The position numbers and the translations under genes were made by a program. The notes beneath the pieces were generated by a model. The model saw only the letters and a list, made by a program, of their open reading frames with translations. It did not search any database and was not told where the DNA came from. From IMG/VR virus record IMGVR_UViG_3300045988_138709: a stretch of DNA of 40,733 nucleotides. One strand, written 5' to 3'. This DNA is from a virus. Its lineage: Duplodnaviria > Heunggongvirae > Uroviricota > Caudoviricetes. Shown piece after piece: positions 2,263 to 6,249 of this stretch (its first letter is position 1; each line of letters starts with the position of its first letter).

Positions 2263-2789
2263 TTGCGTAACTCCGATAACTCGTTAAAGCGTTCCATAAA
2301 CATCCCGTAGGCATGGCCCGGTGCCAGTGGAATCACGTTGAACATCTCTGTTGCCGGGATACCTTCCAGTACAGGCCAGAAAGAGCCATCATCAAGCCCG
2401 AGATCGCGGCGTTCGGTTGCCAGCATGATGAGATCGGCATATTTCACGGGCGTACTCATAACTGGAGGTAACCCGTATTTCTCACGGATTACGGCGTCTA
2501 TTTTTTCTTCCATTTGTTTATAGTCAGGAAGAAGGCGTTTCAGTGGTGCGGGAATGTCCTGGCAATACGCTTCTGTTGCATCATGCATTAACGCTTCAAA
2601 AGCAAATTCCTGCGGCACCAGCTGGCTGCAAAGAACCGCATGTTGGGCGACGCTGTAGAAGTGCGAAAGATGACCGGCAAAGCGACAGATATTTGAAAGG
2701 GAAACCGCGATATCGTTAATATCGATGTCGTCTTTATTTATCCTGTCATAATAAAAATGCTTCCCGGAAAAAGTTTTAATAAATGACAT
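2253..2789 (-). CDS. HD-domain phosphohydrolase (YfdR-like 5'-deoxynucleotidase family)
   Basis: HD signature ...SVAQHAV...ALMHDATEAY...; start moved to internal ATG (MSFIKTF...) from the longer ORF 2253..2816. Similarity to E. coli CPS-53 YfdR is from recall. Confidence 0.75.
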   Translation of the reverse strand: MSFIKTFSGKHFYYDRINKDDIDINDIAVSLSNICRFAGHLSHFYSVAQHAVLCSQLVPQEFAFEALMHDATEAYCQDIPAPLKRLLPDYKQMEEKIDAVIREKYGLPPVMSTPVKYADLIMLATERRDLGLDDGSFWPVLEGIPATEMFNVIPLAPGHAYGMFMERFNELSELRKCA

Positions 2790-2916
2790 TTTGTTCTCCA
2801 CGTATATGCGCTGCACCGCGCTGAATTCTGGTAAAAAGAATCCCTCACCATCCGGCGATTATTGAGTAAATTACGTTTCCATAAATGCCCCCGCAGGGGC
2901 ATTTGCAGTAATGAAA

Positions 2917-3741
2917 TCAGGCGGTGAAAGTACCAATAAAGGTTTCTACTTTGCTGTCCTTGAATTTCTCAACAAGCAGATCACGAAATTCGTTAGCCAT
3001 TTCTTCCTGCACCGCCTCCAGCTGAATAATGCGCAGAACCAGTACAGGACGATCGCCAGTGATAATACTGAGGCGTAATTTAAACGGACGTTCTTTCAGA
3101 CCTTCAAACGGAACGCATTTAAATTCAAATGCCACTGGCATAATGTCTTTGGTCTTCGCTTCGACAGACTCCATCAGGGAGCGTTTGCCGCTGAAGTCAT
3201 TATCTTCAAAATCAGCGGTCTGGTTTGCTTCAATCGTGATTTTACGGACAGCCGCAGCCGCTTTTGTTGCCTGAATAGCGTCACCATTAGCATCAAAGCC
3301 CACAAGATAGTCGGCCCAGTCTTCAATCCATTCTGCCAGTGACTTCTGGGAGTTACGCTCGCCGTTAACAGACAACAGAGCAGAGAACGGTGCTGTCTTT
3401 TTCAGTTTGAGTGTGGCGGTGTTATCTGCGTGACCTGGTTCATCAATAGTACCCAGGTTAAGCACACTGACGGCACGCATATTATCAGCATCGATAAAGC
3501 AGCGGGTGCCTTCATCTGCAAGATCTTTAGAATAACGGGTAAAGTCATCGATGCTGGCAGTGGAAAGCGCACCACGGAAACGGAAGCGATTTAAATTAAA
3601 TTTTTCCAGATCATGAATGCGGAAATTCTCAGGCAATGCCACAGCATCGGCACCAATCTTACTGATAATTTCATTAACACCCTGAGCAGAAATAAGGGCA
3701 TGGATTTGATTAATTGCGGTTGCGTCTAAGTTCTGAGACAT
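2917..3741 (-). CDS. DUF2303 / YfdQ-like prophage protein
   Basis: 274-aa ORF with GAGGA RBS ahead of ATG; resemblance to CPS-53 YfdQ from recall; function unknown. Confidence 0.7.
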
Positions 3742-3806
3742 AATAAGTCCTCACTATATAAAGATATTCAGTGATGAGATAAATAATCAGTTAATTAAAA
3801 ACGATA

Positions 3807-4169
3807 TTAACGACCTGCTGCGCGGAGTTTTCCGTCAGGTTCACCGGCAAGAGTCAGTAACTGTCCCTGGTCTTCCTGCAGAATAGTCAGGCGACCACCG
3901 CGATTGACATACATCGGCGTTTCGGTGGTGTCTTCTTCGGAAATTTTCCCGCGGTTAGTCGGGCGAACATATGAGAGTTTGTGTTTGATTTTCACTCGGT
4001 TCTCATCAAACGGTTCGATTTCCAGGTTGAGCGAGACCTTACCTTTGGTTTTCGTGTTCATCACACCGGAAGCGACTTCACTGAGAACTGCGCCGATTTT
4101 GGTTTCAAATACGCCGCCGTCCAGCTCCCCGATAAATGCCTGCACATCAGTACTGCGTTCGCTAGCCAT
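3807..4169 (-). CDS. YfdP-like small prophage protein
   Basis: Internal start MASERSTDVQAF... (aa 107 of ORF 3807..4487). The N-terminal extension of the long ORF runs through a hairpin-rich non-coding block and is rejected. Confidence 0.6.
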   Translation of the reverse strand: MASERSTDVQAFIGELDGGVFETKIGAVLSEVASGVMNTKTKGKVSLNLEIEPFDENRVKIKHKLSYVRPTNRGKISEEDTTETPMYVNRGGRLTILQEDQGQLLTLAGEPDGKLRAAGR

Positions 4170-4209
4170 TTTGCTGCTCCTCATCATATCGACCCTGCAA
4201 GGTCGGTTA

Positions 4210-4355
4210 GTTTCTCCACAAAACAGAGAAGAACACCTGCGGTGACTGCCGCCCGGATGGATTGGGTTATGAGCCCGTCGTCCGGTGATGCTCTTCTCTG
4301 TTTTGTAAAAAGGACGGTACCAGCCGGAAGCAAGGGTACAAGCTGGTACCGCCAA
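4210..4355. other. Structured non-coding block: nested long inverted repeats
   Basis: ~17-bp inverted repeat ACAAAACAGAGAAGAAC / GCTCTTCTCTGTTTTGT (about 4219-4235 and 4291-4307) and a perfect 9-bp stem GGTACCAGC/GCTGGTACC (about 4317-4351). Overlapping low-quality ORFs on both strands. Confidence 0.4.
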
Positions 4356-4637
4356 GACTACACACAGCATAAAGTTGTGGTGCCGGGTGCCTCCCGGTGC
4401 CTGGCGAAGGTTGCACACCAGGCGGGTGGGTATCCACAGAAGGTCGACTGTCAGCCTCAACCTTAACCCGCGTGCGCTGAGCCGCATTCACCACAACGCT
4501 AAGGATTCTCTCTGGTTGAAAATACTTAGCTGTTATGTGCCTGCTTTTAGCCACATCAGGCGAGGTGGACCTAGTTATTCCCCAACAACAAGGATTCGGT
4601 TAATCTGGTTATCCCCAACAACGCAAAAGGAAAAGAA

Positions 4638-5072
4638 ATGTCCGGTAATATCTATACGCTGTACAAATCCCACTGTGAAAATGTTGGAAAGTATCGGGGC
4701 ATTGAAATCAGTGGGGTAGTGTCATCAGTCGAAATAAGCAAAGTTGAATCAAGGGCAACATTACTTACTCTTTTGGACCTTGTCTTACATGAGCACCGGA
4801 AGAAATTCGGCACTCCCTATAATCAGTTGAATGGGAAAAAGGCTCTGGTTCACCTTATTCTGATGAAGCATCACTGGATGCCAAAACAGATTAATGAGAT
4901 GAAATTTGATGAACTTCTTCTTTCAATTCAGGATGAACTCACACTTGATAAAATAAGCGTAACCGCCCAGAAATTTTTAGATTATCGAGACTGGAGATCA
5001 CAAATTCATCACTTTGATGATTTTGACGAAAATGAATGGGATCCTAATTTGTCTGCACAATATCTAAAGTAA
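4638..5072 (+). CDS. Hypothetical protein encoded antisense to the early-left operon
   Basis: 144-aa ORF with ATG and AAAGGA RBS; AT-rich; no motif recognised. Confidence 0.5.
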   Translation: MSGNIYTLYKSHCENVGKYRGIEISGVVSSVEISKVESRATLLTLLDLVLHEHRKKFGTPYNQLNGKKALVHLILMKHHWMPKQINEMKFDELLLSIQDELTLDKISVTAQKFLDYRDWRSQIHHFDDFDENEWDPNLSAQYLK

Positions 5073-5250
5073 CATCCTGTGATAAAACCGTGATTTCCTG
5101 ATCCAGTTTTTTTAAGGAGTCTATTGTTTCCTGTCGATAAGACAGCACTTCACGAAGCTGGTTTATAGCTGCCAGCTTCTTTGTCATCCACTCATAAATT
5201 TCCTCATCTGTGTAGCCAGGCGCGACGATTTTGGGTTCTGTTTTGTGCAT
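5044..5250 (-). CDS. Small hypothetical protein (first gene of leftward early transcript?)
   Basis: ORF 5044..5265, start placed at internal ATG (MHKTEPK...). 3' end overlaps the convergent 4638..5072 gene. Weak. Confidence 0.35.
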   Translation of the reverse strand: MHKTEPKIVAPGYTDEEIYEWMTKKLAAINQLREVLSYRQETIDSLKKLDQEITVLSQDVTLDIVQTN

Positions 5251-5310
5251 TTCACATCTCCTCAAGTTATCAGTTACTTGTTGATGGGGACCAGATTGTT
5301 AAAGAGCTAA

Positions 5311-5332
5311 GCGTCCTGTAGGGCGCTTTTTT
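5311..5332 (+). terminator. Putative intrinsic terminator (hairpin plus T6)
   Basis: GCGTCC-TGTA-GGGCGC followed by TTTTTT, read by eye. Confidence 0.35.
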
Positions 5333-5409
5333 GTTGCTAACGAATCATCCTGGACTTCATATGCCCCAGGCGGCTACTTCGTGGGCGTCCTGCCTGTTCG
5401 TTGTTTCTC

Positions 5410-5446
5410 TTGGGTACATTACGTATCTCAAAGGTACATTGTCAAG
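5410..5446 (-). promoter_or_regulatory. Putative OL/pL: two GGTACATT repeats and a TTGACA -35 on the minus strand
   Basis: GGTACATT at about 5413-5420 and 5433-5440 (20-bp spacing); minus-strand TTGACA at 5445..5440; -10 is weak. Position just outside the repressor terminator matches a lambdoid pL. Confidence 0.4.
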
Positions 5447-5471
5447 TATAAAAAAACCTGCCGAAGCAGGT
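5447..5471 (-). terminator. Intrinsic terminator downstream of the repressor gene
   Basis: Minus-strand ACCTGC-TTCG-GCAGGT followed by a T7 run, immediately after the repressor stop. Confidence 0.55.
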
Positions 5472-5484
5472 TCATAAACATTGA

Positions 5485-6159
5485 TTAGGCTTTGATTTTG
5501 TATCTTCTTGGTTTTCCTGAGAAAATCACTGTACCAATTATAGAGCAATTACCGTTGATCTTAATGTAAGGCTCAGGCCAGTTTGGGTTTAACGCTTTGA
5601 GATAACGCTGTGTCCCATCTTCTATTAACCTTTTGAAGGTGGTTTCACCTGTATCGTGCATCAATGCAATAACGTCGTCACCGTGGCAGGCAGGTACTTC
5701 AGGATCGACAAAAATCATGTCTCCCGGGCGGTACTCATCAATCATTGAATCACCTATCACCCGCAAGATATAAGTCATTTCCCCACAGGGTACAGGGCAG
5801 GGATACGTTTCTGCTGTGCTCAAATCAACCTCAGAATATCCAACTTCTTTCCATGCTCCGGCCTGTACCCATGATATGACAGGGACTAATGTGATTTGTT
5901 TATTAGTGATTGAAACATCAGGTTTTTTTGTGATGTTCGTTGTCTGGTGTTCTTGATCGAGCCATCCGACAGGTAGGTCGAAACATTTTTCGATGTGTCG
6001 TGCCATGCTGTCACCGATATTTTTAGTAGCACCATCTCCCATAAACCTGCTGGTCTGGGTTGGCTCGCGATCAATCATAGTGGCAAAGGAAGAATTCCCG
6101 CCAACACCATCTCTCAGTTTTCTGGCGTTAGACCGCCGGATGTCATGGATTGTTTTCAT
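5485..6159 (-). CDS. cI: CI-like phage repressor (N-terminal HTH plus C-terminal S24 LexA-like peptidase domain)
   Basis: 224 aa; C-terminal autocleavage-domain motifs (...VISWVQAGAW..., GDSM, ...TFKRL...); divergent from the Cro-like gene; no obvious SD ahead of its ATG. Confidence 0.85.
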   Translation of the reverse strand: MKTIHDIRRSNARKLRDGVGGNSSFATMIDREPTQTSRFMGDGATKNIGDSMARHIEKCFDLPVGWLDQEHQTTNITKKPDVSITNKQITLVPVISWVQAGAWKEVGYSEVDLSTAETYPCPVPCGEMTYILRVIGDSMIDEYRPGDMIFVDPEVPACHGDDVIALMHDTGETTFKRLIEDGTQRYLKALNPNWPEPYIKINGNCSIIGTVIFSGKPRRYKIKA

Positions 6160-6169
6160 AACGAAATTA

Positions 6170-6249
6170 AAACCCTTGTACCGTTAAGGTACAAGTATCT
6201 TGAAGGTTCATTTCAATCATGTAATATGTACACCGGAGGTACATATTGT
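6170..6249. promoter_or_regulatory. OR region: two palindromic operators plus pR (TTGAAG-16-TAATAT)
   Basis: Palindromes CTTGTACC-N5-GGTACAAG (about 6175-6195) and ATATGTAC-N7-GTACATAT (about 6224-6246, overlapping the -10 at 6222-6227); -35 TTGAAG at about 6200-6205. Confidence 0.55.

Follow-up and report, generated by a model that had tools for sequence, protein, structure and literature searches.

Three structured RNA modules in the early-left operon of a lambdoid prophage: a candidate composite small RNA precursor

The 40,733-nt virus record IMGVR_UViG_3300045988_138709 (Caudoviricetes) is the whole stretch of DNA analysed here; we call it the window, and all coordinates refer to it unless another locus is named. 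It is a lambdoid prophage of the SfV / SfIV / ST64B / CPS-53 type that adjoins a tRNA-Thr gene. Our subject is a hairpin-dense intergenic gap at 4170-4637, in the early-left operon, which lies between yfdP on the left (3807-4169, minus strand, ATG at 4169) and an ECs1072-family gene on the right (4638-5072, plus strand). Further right is ymfK, the gene of a LexA/cI-like repressor (5485-6159, minus strand). The same 467 nt are carried by 2782 of 5426 complete E. coli genomes (about half) and by phages Kati, SfIV, SfV and SfII, with a version of ~78% identity in ST64B. The sole RefSeq annotation within the gap is a frameshifted ‘hypothetical protein’ pseudogene called by PGAP (window 4184-4494). 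Mechanical open reading frames (ORFs) of 95 and 49 aa on the minus strand and of 161 and 114 aa on the plus strand can be read in the gap, and a Pfam search with them gave no matches. The opinion of a first-pass annotation, made by eye on the letters and their ORFs, that no credible ORF lies here therefore holds.

The same annotation had marked a block at 4205-4560 and treated it as one element. The block is real and its features are non-random, yet the non-coding gap is wider (4170-4637) and the features belong to three separable RNA modules, all on the minus strand, with differing distributions among phages. The relevant strand is thus the minus strand, i.e. that of the early-left operon. 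When folded, minus-strand RNA from 4296-4535 reaches -100.9 kcal/mol (z = -4.4, with none of 200 shuffles as good), compared with z = -2.3 only for the plus strand of the same segment. Minus-strand RNA from 4171-4312 reaches -59.7 kcal/mol (z = -6.3). In both segments, the minus-strand structures exceed chance. Terminator-like hairpins are also over-represented in the surrounding region (8 observed in 3700-5600 versus 1.9 expected).

The first module is a pseudoknotted core with a flanking hairpin. The core is a multi-helix domain of ~136 nt (4370-4505, minus strand) of the STnc100/PasD type. It consists of a closing helix P1 (4489-4497 with 4374-4382), a hairpin P2 (4473-4486), a helix P3 (4466-4471 with 4422-4427) and the hairpins P4 (4401-4421) and P5 (4383-4397), and its pseudoknot pairs AAGGUUG (4458-4464) with CAACCUU (4407-4413) in the P4 loop. 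Directly before the core, at its 5' side, the predicted fold places a further hairpin, P0 (GCUAAGUAUUUUC ... GAGAAUCCUUAGC, 4498-4530, minus strand). Hairpins of other sequence occupy this position in phiES15 (GAAGCGCAUU / GAAUGCGCUUC), in P1-like loci (AGAGCAUUC / GAAUGCUCU) and in loci L239 and L170 (seen by eye and uncounted).

At gathering thresholds, an Rfam scan reported only the flanking tRNA, and the STnc100 cut-off of 47 bits was not reached (the cut-offs for DicF and RprA are 48 and 70 bits). Sub-threshold matches were obtained by reporting on E-value (E up to 10) on a short stretch. Here STnc100 (RF02076) aligns with 4527-4304 on the minus strand at 43.4 bits (E = 4e-8) and does so over its full length (model positions 1-206 of 206). 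Together with the covarying helices and with the RprA-type seed and intrinsic terminator that follow them, this match bears out the first-pass idea of a structured RNA or small RNA (sRNA). Sub-threshold matches to the central part of the STnc100 model also occur in ST64B, in Cronobacter phage phiES15 and in the P1-like phage RCS47; the one in phiES15 is located in the early-left operon, ahead of kil and gam.

To describe the core on its own terms, a covariance model, R1, was built from 23 early-operon copies. Sequences were aligned with a covariance model; MAFFT had misaligned P3 and P4 by two columns between subtypes. R1 finds a single copy in the window, at 4370-4505, with 97.3 bits on the minus strand versus 5.2 bits on the plus strand, and no second core. 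Since R1 also picks up canonical STnc100-like copies (E = 1e-7 to 1e-14), the early-operon and canonical subtypes are homologous. Covariation was counted on an alignment of 74 sequences (71 distinct homologues), which is fitted to the model and so favours structure; the margin is nevertheless large. Pairing is seen in 87.6% of cells compared with 69.5% in shuffles (0 of 500 as high). Of the 30 pairs, 24 show changes in both partners, and the alignment earns a covariation score of 0.46; shuffles score 0.16, and slid partners never exceed 0.10. The five helices and the pseudoknot covary across ~70 phage copies, and homologues differ by indels within their variable hairpins.

The pseudoknot deserves separate mention. 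In the copies, the stretch of 7-10 nt that directly follows P3 has its complement in the P4 loop, and 39 distinct duplex sequences are found there, among them AAGGCUG/CAGCCUU, ACAGUUAA/UUAACUG, UGGUUAU/AUAACCA, AGACUGACAA/UUGUCAGUCU, CUGGUG/CACCAG and CCAGUC/GACUGG. Over 61 distinct copies, the duplex energy with a copy's own partner averages -8.5 kcal/mol versus -4.3 +/- 0.3 kcal/mol for permuted partners (0 of 5000 permutations as low). These duplex energies and permutations replaced an earlier statistic, the longest complementary run, which discriminated poorly (own 6.75 versus cross 5.35).

The family's most conserved segment is the 22-mer CACCGGGAGGCACCCGGCACCA (4378-4399, minus strand), which comprises the P5 hairpin and the start of the P1 3' strand and has GGAGG in and beside the P5 loop. 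Its plus-strand reading gives the GGTGCC direct repeats of the first-pass annotation, of which three copies lie within ~4378-4402; a repeat search returns CCGGGTGCCT twice at 4383-4402. The exact 22-mer is present in at least 120 viral contigs, and the loci that carry it follow a common plan: P1, an AAU junction, P2, a variable insert, P4, an invariant P5 and the P1 3' strand. Within P5, the stem covaries (CCGGG/CCCGG, CCUGG/CCAGG, GGUGG/CCACC) while the loop AGGCA stays constant. By eye only, a possible tertiary contact was noticed that would join the GGAGG loop of P5 to pyrimidine-rich parts of the variable hairpin.

Core copies are placed at the head of early and late operons in lambdoid and P1-like phages, as well as in the dicB 5' untranslated region (5' UTR) of E. 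coli K-12. Several placements are worth recording. Tandem arrays of 2-4 diverged cores occur in L014 (4 copies, 2321-3359), L022 (3 copies, 365-993), L125 and L021, and several of these arrayed cores have their own terminator and a different pseudoknot sequence. In L023 (5320-5442), a core with a TTGA..-TAAATT promoter directly precedes the holin, endolysin and spanin genes; a core would therefore, in some phages, be the first RNA of the late transcript, which is the position of lambda 6S RNA. In P1-like plasmid prophages (RCS47, i.e. L003 2004-2124, and L215, L134 and L158), the core is intergenic, upstream of variable genes near a tRNA cluster. In L214 (2972-3371) and L180 (5482-5898), the core is followed by matches to isrK and the C4 antisense RNA in an immI/ant-type module. 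ST64B (L002 5732-5920) has an isrK-C4 pair elsewhere in the locus, and several structured RNAs stand in a row in these early regions.

The second module joins a seed to a terminator. It begins with an AU-rich single-stranded linker, UUUAUG, a candidate RNase E site, which together with the seed spans 4354-4373 (minus strand). The seed, UGCUGUGUGUAGUCUU (4354-4369, minus strand), is identical over 16 consecutive nt to the conserved 3' seed of E. coli RprA and lies next to the terminator. It was matched to RprA through a literal sequence search of the literature, in which the conserved seed is printed as AUUGCUGUGUGUAGUCUUUGCC in the sequence context ...AAUUGCUGUGUGUAGUCUUUGCCCAUC... (PMC5606850, PMC7311995). 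The intrinsic terminator (4305-4353, minus strand) reads GGCGGUACCAGC, a 17-nt loop, GCUGGUACCGUCC and then CCUUUUU. In it we recognize the perfect stem that was noticed at first, present here with 10 bp (CGGTACCAGC / GCTGGTACCG, 4315-4324 / 4342-4351) and extended to 13 pairs in the fold. Its 5' arm is DicF-like (UUGGCGGUAxCAG); the Rfam DicF model (RF00039) matches it weakly (19.4 bits, E = 0.11) and does not reach its 48-bit cut-off. The same terminator aligns as the terminator of the STnc100 model.

The seed is kept in Klebsiella Kp4866-6, Citrobacter phiNP, Cronobacter phiES15, Escherichia Flotzy and the DicF-position sRNA of a Qin-like operon, while terminator stems vary among the homologues. 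Because the linker-proximal stretch is conserved where terminator stems differ, it behaves like a seed. Two relatives resemble RprA further: Flotzy has 26 nt identical to it, including the terminator arm, and scores 43.2 bits with Rfam RprA (E = 3.7e-4), and phiES15 scores 41 bits (both sub-threshold). In the window, the RprA model (RF00034) has no match at E up to 10. Activation of rpoS through the RprA-like seed was considered and is not claimed: the ACGAAUU segment is absent, and shuffled sequences did as well as the seed region in a crude duplex test against the rpoS leader. For these two reasons, our claim is limited to the identity of the seed. A literature search for RprA-like, homologous or mimic RNAs in prophages returned nothing relevant within the library searched.

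The third module is a Y-shaped element (4218-4306, minus strand; fold z = -6.3) that contains the ~17-bp near-perfect inverted repeat of the first-pass annotation. The repeat is present, and its fuller arms are 25 nt long (4218-4242 / 4282-4306). As DNA they are 84% complementary; as minus-strand RNA all positions pair, two of them as G.U, in a closing stem of 20-25 bp. Inside it are hairpin A (4253-4285) and hairpin B (4239-4252). Because the 5' arm begins in the terminator U-tract, the Y element forms only on read-through transcripts. Among the 7 homologues compared, pairing is present in 95.2% of cells, changes on both sides are seen at 6 pairs (at most 1 in slid controls), and one U.G wobble is invariant. 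The pairing is conserved among phage homologues, as it is in the core. By eye, hairpin B of ST64B shows a compensatory change from GCGG/CCGC to GCUG/CAGC. With its length, the closing stem could plausibly be cleaved by RNase III.

The tip of hairpin A (CGGGCUCAUAACCC, 4264-4277) is an exact 14-mer of the E. coli initiator tRNA-fMet (metZ), with three G-C pairs and the CAU anticodon loop, and is the sole match of at least 11 nt to the initiator tRNA in the window. A tRNA gene in the long hairpin was ruled out, as neither ARAGORN nor Rfam calls a tRNA at 4218-4306; the Rfam scan of the Y element matched no family. Different genes follow the element in different phages; the Y element therefore travels with the sRNA module and not with yfdP, and we place a mosaic boundary at ~4210, directly after it. 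Beyond this point, a small hairpin (CGACCUUGCAGGGUCG, 4190-4205, minus strand), followed by a Shine-Dalgarno sequence and the yfdP ATG, forms the module's downstream edge (4167-4205). Short-stem versions of the Y element are seen in Klebsiella phages (L246 1508-1590; L252 and L253 at ~1205-1290), directly after the tRNA array that follows Q. They have a closing stem of 6-7 bp and end in CAGGCC(A/G)CCA, like a tRNA 3' end, and at these sites ARAGORN and Rfam call nothing.

A parallel to this arrangement is found in the Qin dicB operon, and operons of this type supply many of the early-operon core copies. More than 30 of the loci examined have an exact K-12 DicF just ahead of a core, which comes ~20 nt beyond the DicF terminator and is followed by dicB or another gene. 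The dicF-dicB spacer of MG1655 (NC_000913.3 1649446-1649585; L248 2447-2586) holds such an unannotated core, scoring 124.6 bits with R1 and 34.4 bits with Rfam STnc100, and by its position this core is in effect the dicB 5' UTR. The K-12 region upstream of dicF was also considered as a diverged core and dropped, as R1 detects nothing there at E up to 1. According to Ragunathan et al., DicF has a 190-nt form with a 5' end made by RNase III and a 53-nt form with a 5' end made by RNase E, and both derive from a pL-like dicBp transcript. As far as can be read from the sequence, the layout of the window mirrors that of Qin: a structured 5' domain of ~135 nt, an AU-rich junction and a terminator-proximal sRNA. 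By analogy with DicF, which is cut from the 190-nt form in Qin, a processing site, another of the first-pass proposals, may be expected here too. In Qin-like loci L231, L226, L214, L243, L180, L213 and L150, the sRNAs at the DicF position escape Rfam's DicF model when it is run at its gathering threshold, and several such sRNAs carry an RprA-type seed in place of the K-12 DicF seed.

As to transcription, reading of the sequence points to a candidate pL, TTGACA-18-TAATGT (~5445-5416, minus strand), which directly follows the terminator of the repressor. The flanking AATGTACC repeats are similar to TGTACC...GGTACA palindromes that lie in the ymfK-ymfT interval (6173-6249), and these palindromes are likely to be operators. 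A transcript from the candidate pL would pass a 68-73-aa ORF, run antisense across the ECs1072-family gene and then enter the module. On its path lies an exact rrn-type 12-nt boxA (GCUCUUUAACAA, 5296-5307, minus strand), the only exact boxA in the window and ~750 nt upstream of the block. It is preceded by a G+C-rich hairpin (5309-5328), as in the boxB-boxA order of rrn operons, which doubles as a terminator on the plus strand. The boxA and the hairpin suggest Nus-factor antitermination in the operon. For the nut-like site that the first-pass annotation had considered, the block itself offers no evidence: the boxA-like stretches within it are imperfect and fall in the 3' arm of the Y element, where they are paired, and a boxA (YGCUCUU) followed by a boxB hairpin, as in nut, was not seen on the minus strand (by eye, with no scan).

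The DNA between the module and this promoter has features of its own. Two direct repeats, GTTGTTGGGGA(T/A)AAC(C/T)AG, lie at 4568-4620 (minus strand), between the RNA module and the divergent ECs1072-family gene. They are partly like the sequence leading into P1 (GCGUUGUGGUG) and could be operators or remnants. The ECs1072-family gene is a moron-like insert of opposite orientation in the early-left operon, convergent with the proposed pL transcript, and plus-strand terminators lie near it at 5154-5179 and 5309-5328.

Taking these observations together, we favour the reading that the block is a composite sRNA precursor, to which we give a probability of roughly 60%. Transcription would arrive from upstream, likely from the candidate pL, and the transcript would form P0 and then the pseudoknotted STnc100/PasD-type domain of ~136 nt. 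It would go on through the AU-rich linker and the 16-nt RprA-identical seed and stop at the DicF-like terminator (~4305-4312), giving an RNA of ~200-230 nt (4530-4305). A cut by RNase E in the linker, probable by analogy with DicF in Qin, would then release an sRNA of ~65-70 nt that consists of the seed, the terminator hairpin and a U tail. A terminator hairpin with a U tail is the usual Hfq-binding 3' end, and the freed sRNA may accordingly depend on Hfq. It would act in trans by pairing with host mRNAs through the RprA-type seed, which would let the prophage tap the RprA regulon (envelope stress, biofilm). Polymerases that read through the terminator would transcribe the Y element, whose stem of 20-25 bp takes in the terminator U-tract. 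As an RNase III substrate, this stem would split the sRNA from the yfdP-yfdQ mRNA and so process or insulate the read-through message.

Several points weigh against a composite sRNA precursor. The locus is known from sequence alone. It stays below the thresholds of all three Rfam families (STnc100 43.4 versus 47 bits, DicF 19.4 versus 48 bits, and RprA unreported at E up to 10). A sigma-70 promoter scan gave no site within 100 nt upstream of the element, and the candidate pL is ~900 nt away and would have to read antisense through the convergent gene at 4638-5072 (plus strand). The rpoS-pairing segment of RprA, ACGAAUU, is absent, and in the duplex test of the seed on the rpoS leader, a crude method, 91% of shuffles were at least as good. 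A pseudoknotted domain of 136 nt with invariant loops exceeds what an sRNA precursor needs. Finally, core copies in 5' UTRs (dicB and others) that are not followed by a terminator hint at a role in cis.

This last point leads to the main rival, in which the core is a cis-acting leader. That is, it would be a sensor or a polymerase-modifying RNA (riboswitch-like or a put-like antiterminator) that controls passage of the terminator at 4312-4353 into yfdP-yfdQ, with the terminated RNA as a by-product. The closed multi-helix junction, the covarying pseudoknot and the invariant unpaired nucleotides do look aptamer-like. In late operons, a TTGACA-17-TAAATT promoter leads directly into the core, with holin and endolysin genes further on; in Qin-type operons, 30-40 nt without a terminator separate the core from the start codon of dicB or of another gene; and an exact boxA lies upstream in the same putative transcript. 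Against this, no alternative pairing between core and terminator was seen (by eye, with no systematic test), and members of the family have unrelated linkers and terminators. The canonical ones accumulate as discrete sRNAs, and PasD depends on Hfq and has many RNA partners. Tandem arrays of 3-4 copies, several with their own terminators, suit sRNA genes better than attenuators, and the architecture of the core is unlike that of put. We consider a cis-acting core rather improbable; the cis and sRNA readings are not mutually exclusive.

A wider reading can be added, and we put it forward tentatively, as something we doubt more than we believe. Here the core would be a widespread, unrecognized pseudoknotted domain that has its own task, such as recognition of a ligand, a protein, the ribosome or RNA polymerase, and the Y element a mimic of the initiator-tRNA anticodon arm (e.g. 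a decoy for anticodon nucleases such as VapC, or a ligand of the 30S P site). The module as a whole would then combine a seed mimic, an effector domain and a tRNA mimic.

Structural punctuation is an unlikely explanation on its own. It would have the hairpins do nothing except terminate or insulate between convergent moron and early genes and protect RNA ends. The block does sit between convergent or divergent units, in the region where terminator-like hairpins exceed expectation, and both the terminator and the point just behind the Y element coincide with mosaic boundaries. However, simple punctuation would not account for what is kept across four genera: the invariant 22-nt motif, the pseudoknot, the 16-nt seed and the tRNA-like tip of 14 nt. 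Still less probable, to the point that we set little store by it, is a DNA-level site, be it a recombination target (as the first-pass annotation had offered), a protein-binding palindrome or an origin, that uses the long inverted repeat. The 25-nt arms and the position of the module at a mosaic junction would suit such a site. Yet 39 nt that hold two conserved hairpins separate the arms, the short-stem versions follow tRNA arrays in Klebsiella phages, and the pairing is strand-specific: it includes G.U pairs valid only in minus-strand RNA, one of them (U.G) invariant, and compensatory changes keep the RNA pairing, which points to RNA and not to duplex DNA. As for a degraded protein-coding gene, which the PGAP pseudogene and the hypothetical proteins annotated in several phage records imply, it is highly improbable, as the ORFs have no Pfam match, the helix substitutions are compensatory and not codon-periodic, homologues differ by indels in variable hairpins, and the conserved core is found in unrelated contexts.

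The STnc100/PasD family and phage operon-embedded sRNAs such as DicF are already known. In contrast, the databases and those parts of the literature that were consulted describe neither the early-operon subtype below the cut-off nor the RprA seed, the covarying pseudoknot, the copy in the K-12 dicB leader or the tRNA-fMet-like Y element. If the favoured reading of a composite precursor is true, a prophage RNA with an RprA seed could rewire the envelope-stress and biofilm regulon of its host. STnc100/PasD, DicF and RprA are tied into one mosaic family, which suggests an exchange of parts between core-genome and phage sRNAs. A strongly covarying, unannotated pseudoknotted domain is placed in the 5' UTR of K-12 dicB, a toxic gene whose regulation is under active study, and attention is drawn to a conserved element with a copy of the initiator-tRNA anticodon arm at its tip. 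All of this concerns a stretch found in about half of the complete E. coli genomes and treated in RefSeq as a broken hypothetical gene.

Among known systems, riboswitches and ribozymes in Rfam 15 give chance-level matches only (THF 15.9 bits, Hairpin 14.5 bits). Lambda nut and HK022 put share with the window core a place downstream of an early promoter and upstream of a terminator. put, an RNA of ~70 nt with two stems (PMC9378689) that works without protein factors, differs by this description in having no closing helix or pseudoknot, whereas the window core has 136 nt and both.

RprA, an Rcs-controlled sRNA of the core genome, shares with the window the 16 nt of UGCUGUGUGUAGUCUU, taken from its most conserved segment, directly 5' of a terminator hairpin, and the relatives in Flotzy and phiES15 also have the RprA terminator arm. 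The window RNA differs in lacking the RprA 5' half, the ACGAAUU rpoS segment and the chromosomal rprA context, and a full-length RprA (~105 nt, three stem-loops, 70 bits) is not found in it. Lambda 6S RNA and StxS are likened to the window RNA by position only, each being a short RNA that ends at a terminator at the head of a phage operon; StxS, which Sy et al. are said to have described in 2020, reportedly doubles as a trans-acting regulator. They differ in arising at pR', while the window RNA lies in the early-left operon.

With STnc100/PasD, the window element shares a full-length alignment that includes the terminator, the closing helix, the internal hairpins and the 22-mer CACCGGGAGGCACCCGGCACCA. 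It differs in its P2 hairpin (GCGGCUCAGCGC instead of CCCCCUGUGCGGAGGGG), in its place in the early-left operon between the side of the cI-like repressor and yfdP, and in carrying an RprA-type seed and a DicF-like terminator. Published locations are the interval from Q to the holin/lysis genes for PasD and a site 75 nt downstream of stx2 for one STnc100 copy. STnc100_4 is Northern-positive in EDL933 (PMC5331693), and PasD1 and PasD2 are Northern-detected, with PasD stability dependent on Hfq and many RIL-seq partners (PMC8550237). Zhu, Shabalina and Storz (2026 preprint) already connect PasD with STnc100. A pseudoknot is not mentioned in the portions of the STnc100/PasD literature consulted.

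DicF in the Qin operon offers a match in layout. The seed of K-12 DicF, an sRNA characterized by complementarity to the ftsZ, xylR, pykA and manX mRNAs, is UUUCUGGUGACG and differs from that of the window, and in K-12 the recognizable core is downstream of dicF (in the dicB 5' UTR) and not upstream. What the two have in common is an sRNA, putative in the window, that lies within a pL-like operon downstream of the repressor, a structured 5' extension of ~135 nt, an AU-rich junction, a terminator-proximal sRNA of ~55-65 nt and the terminator arm UUGGCGGUAxCAG; moreover, sRNAs at the DicF position in Qin-like operons carry exactly the seed of the window.

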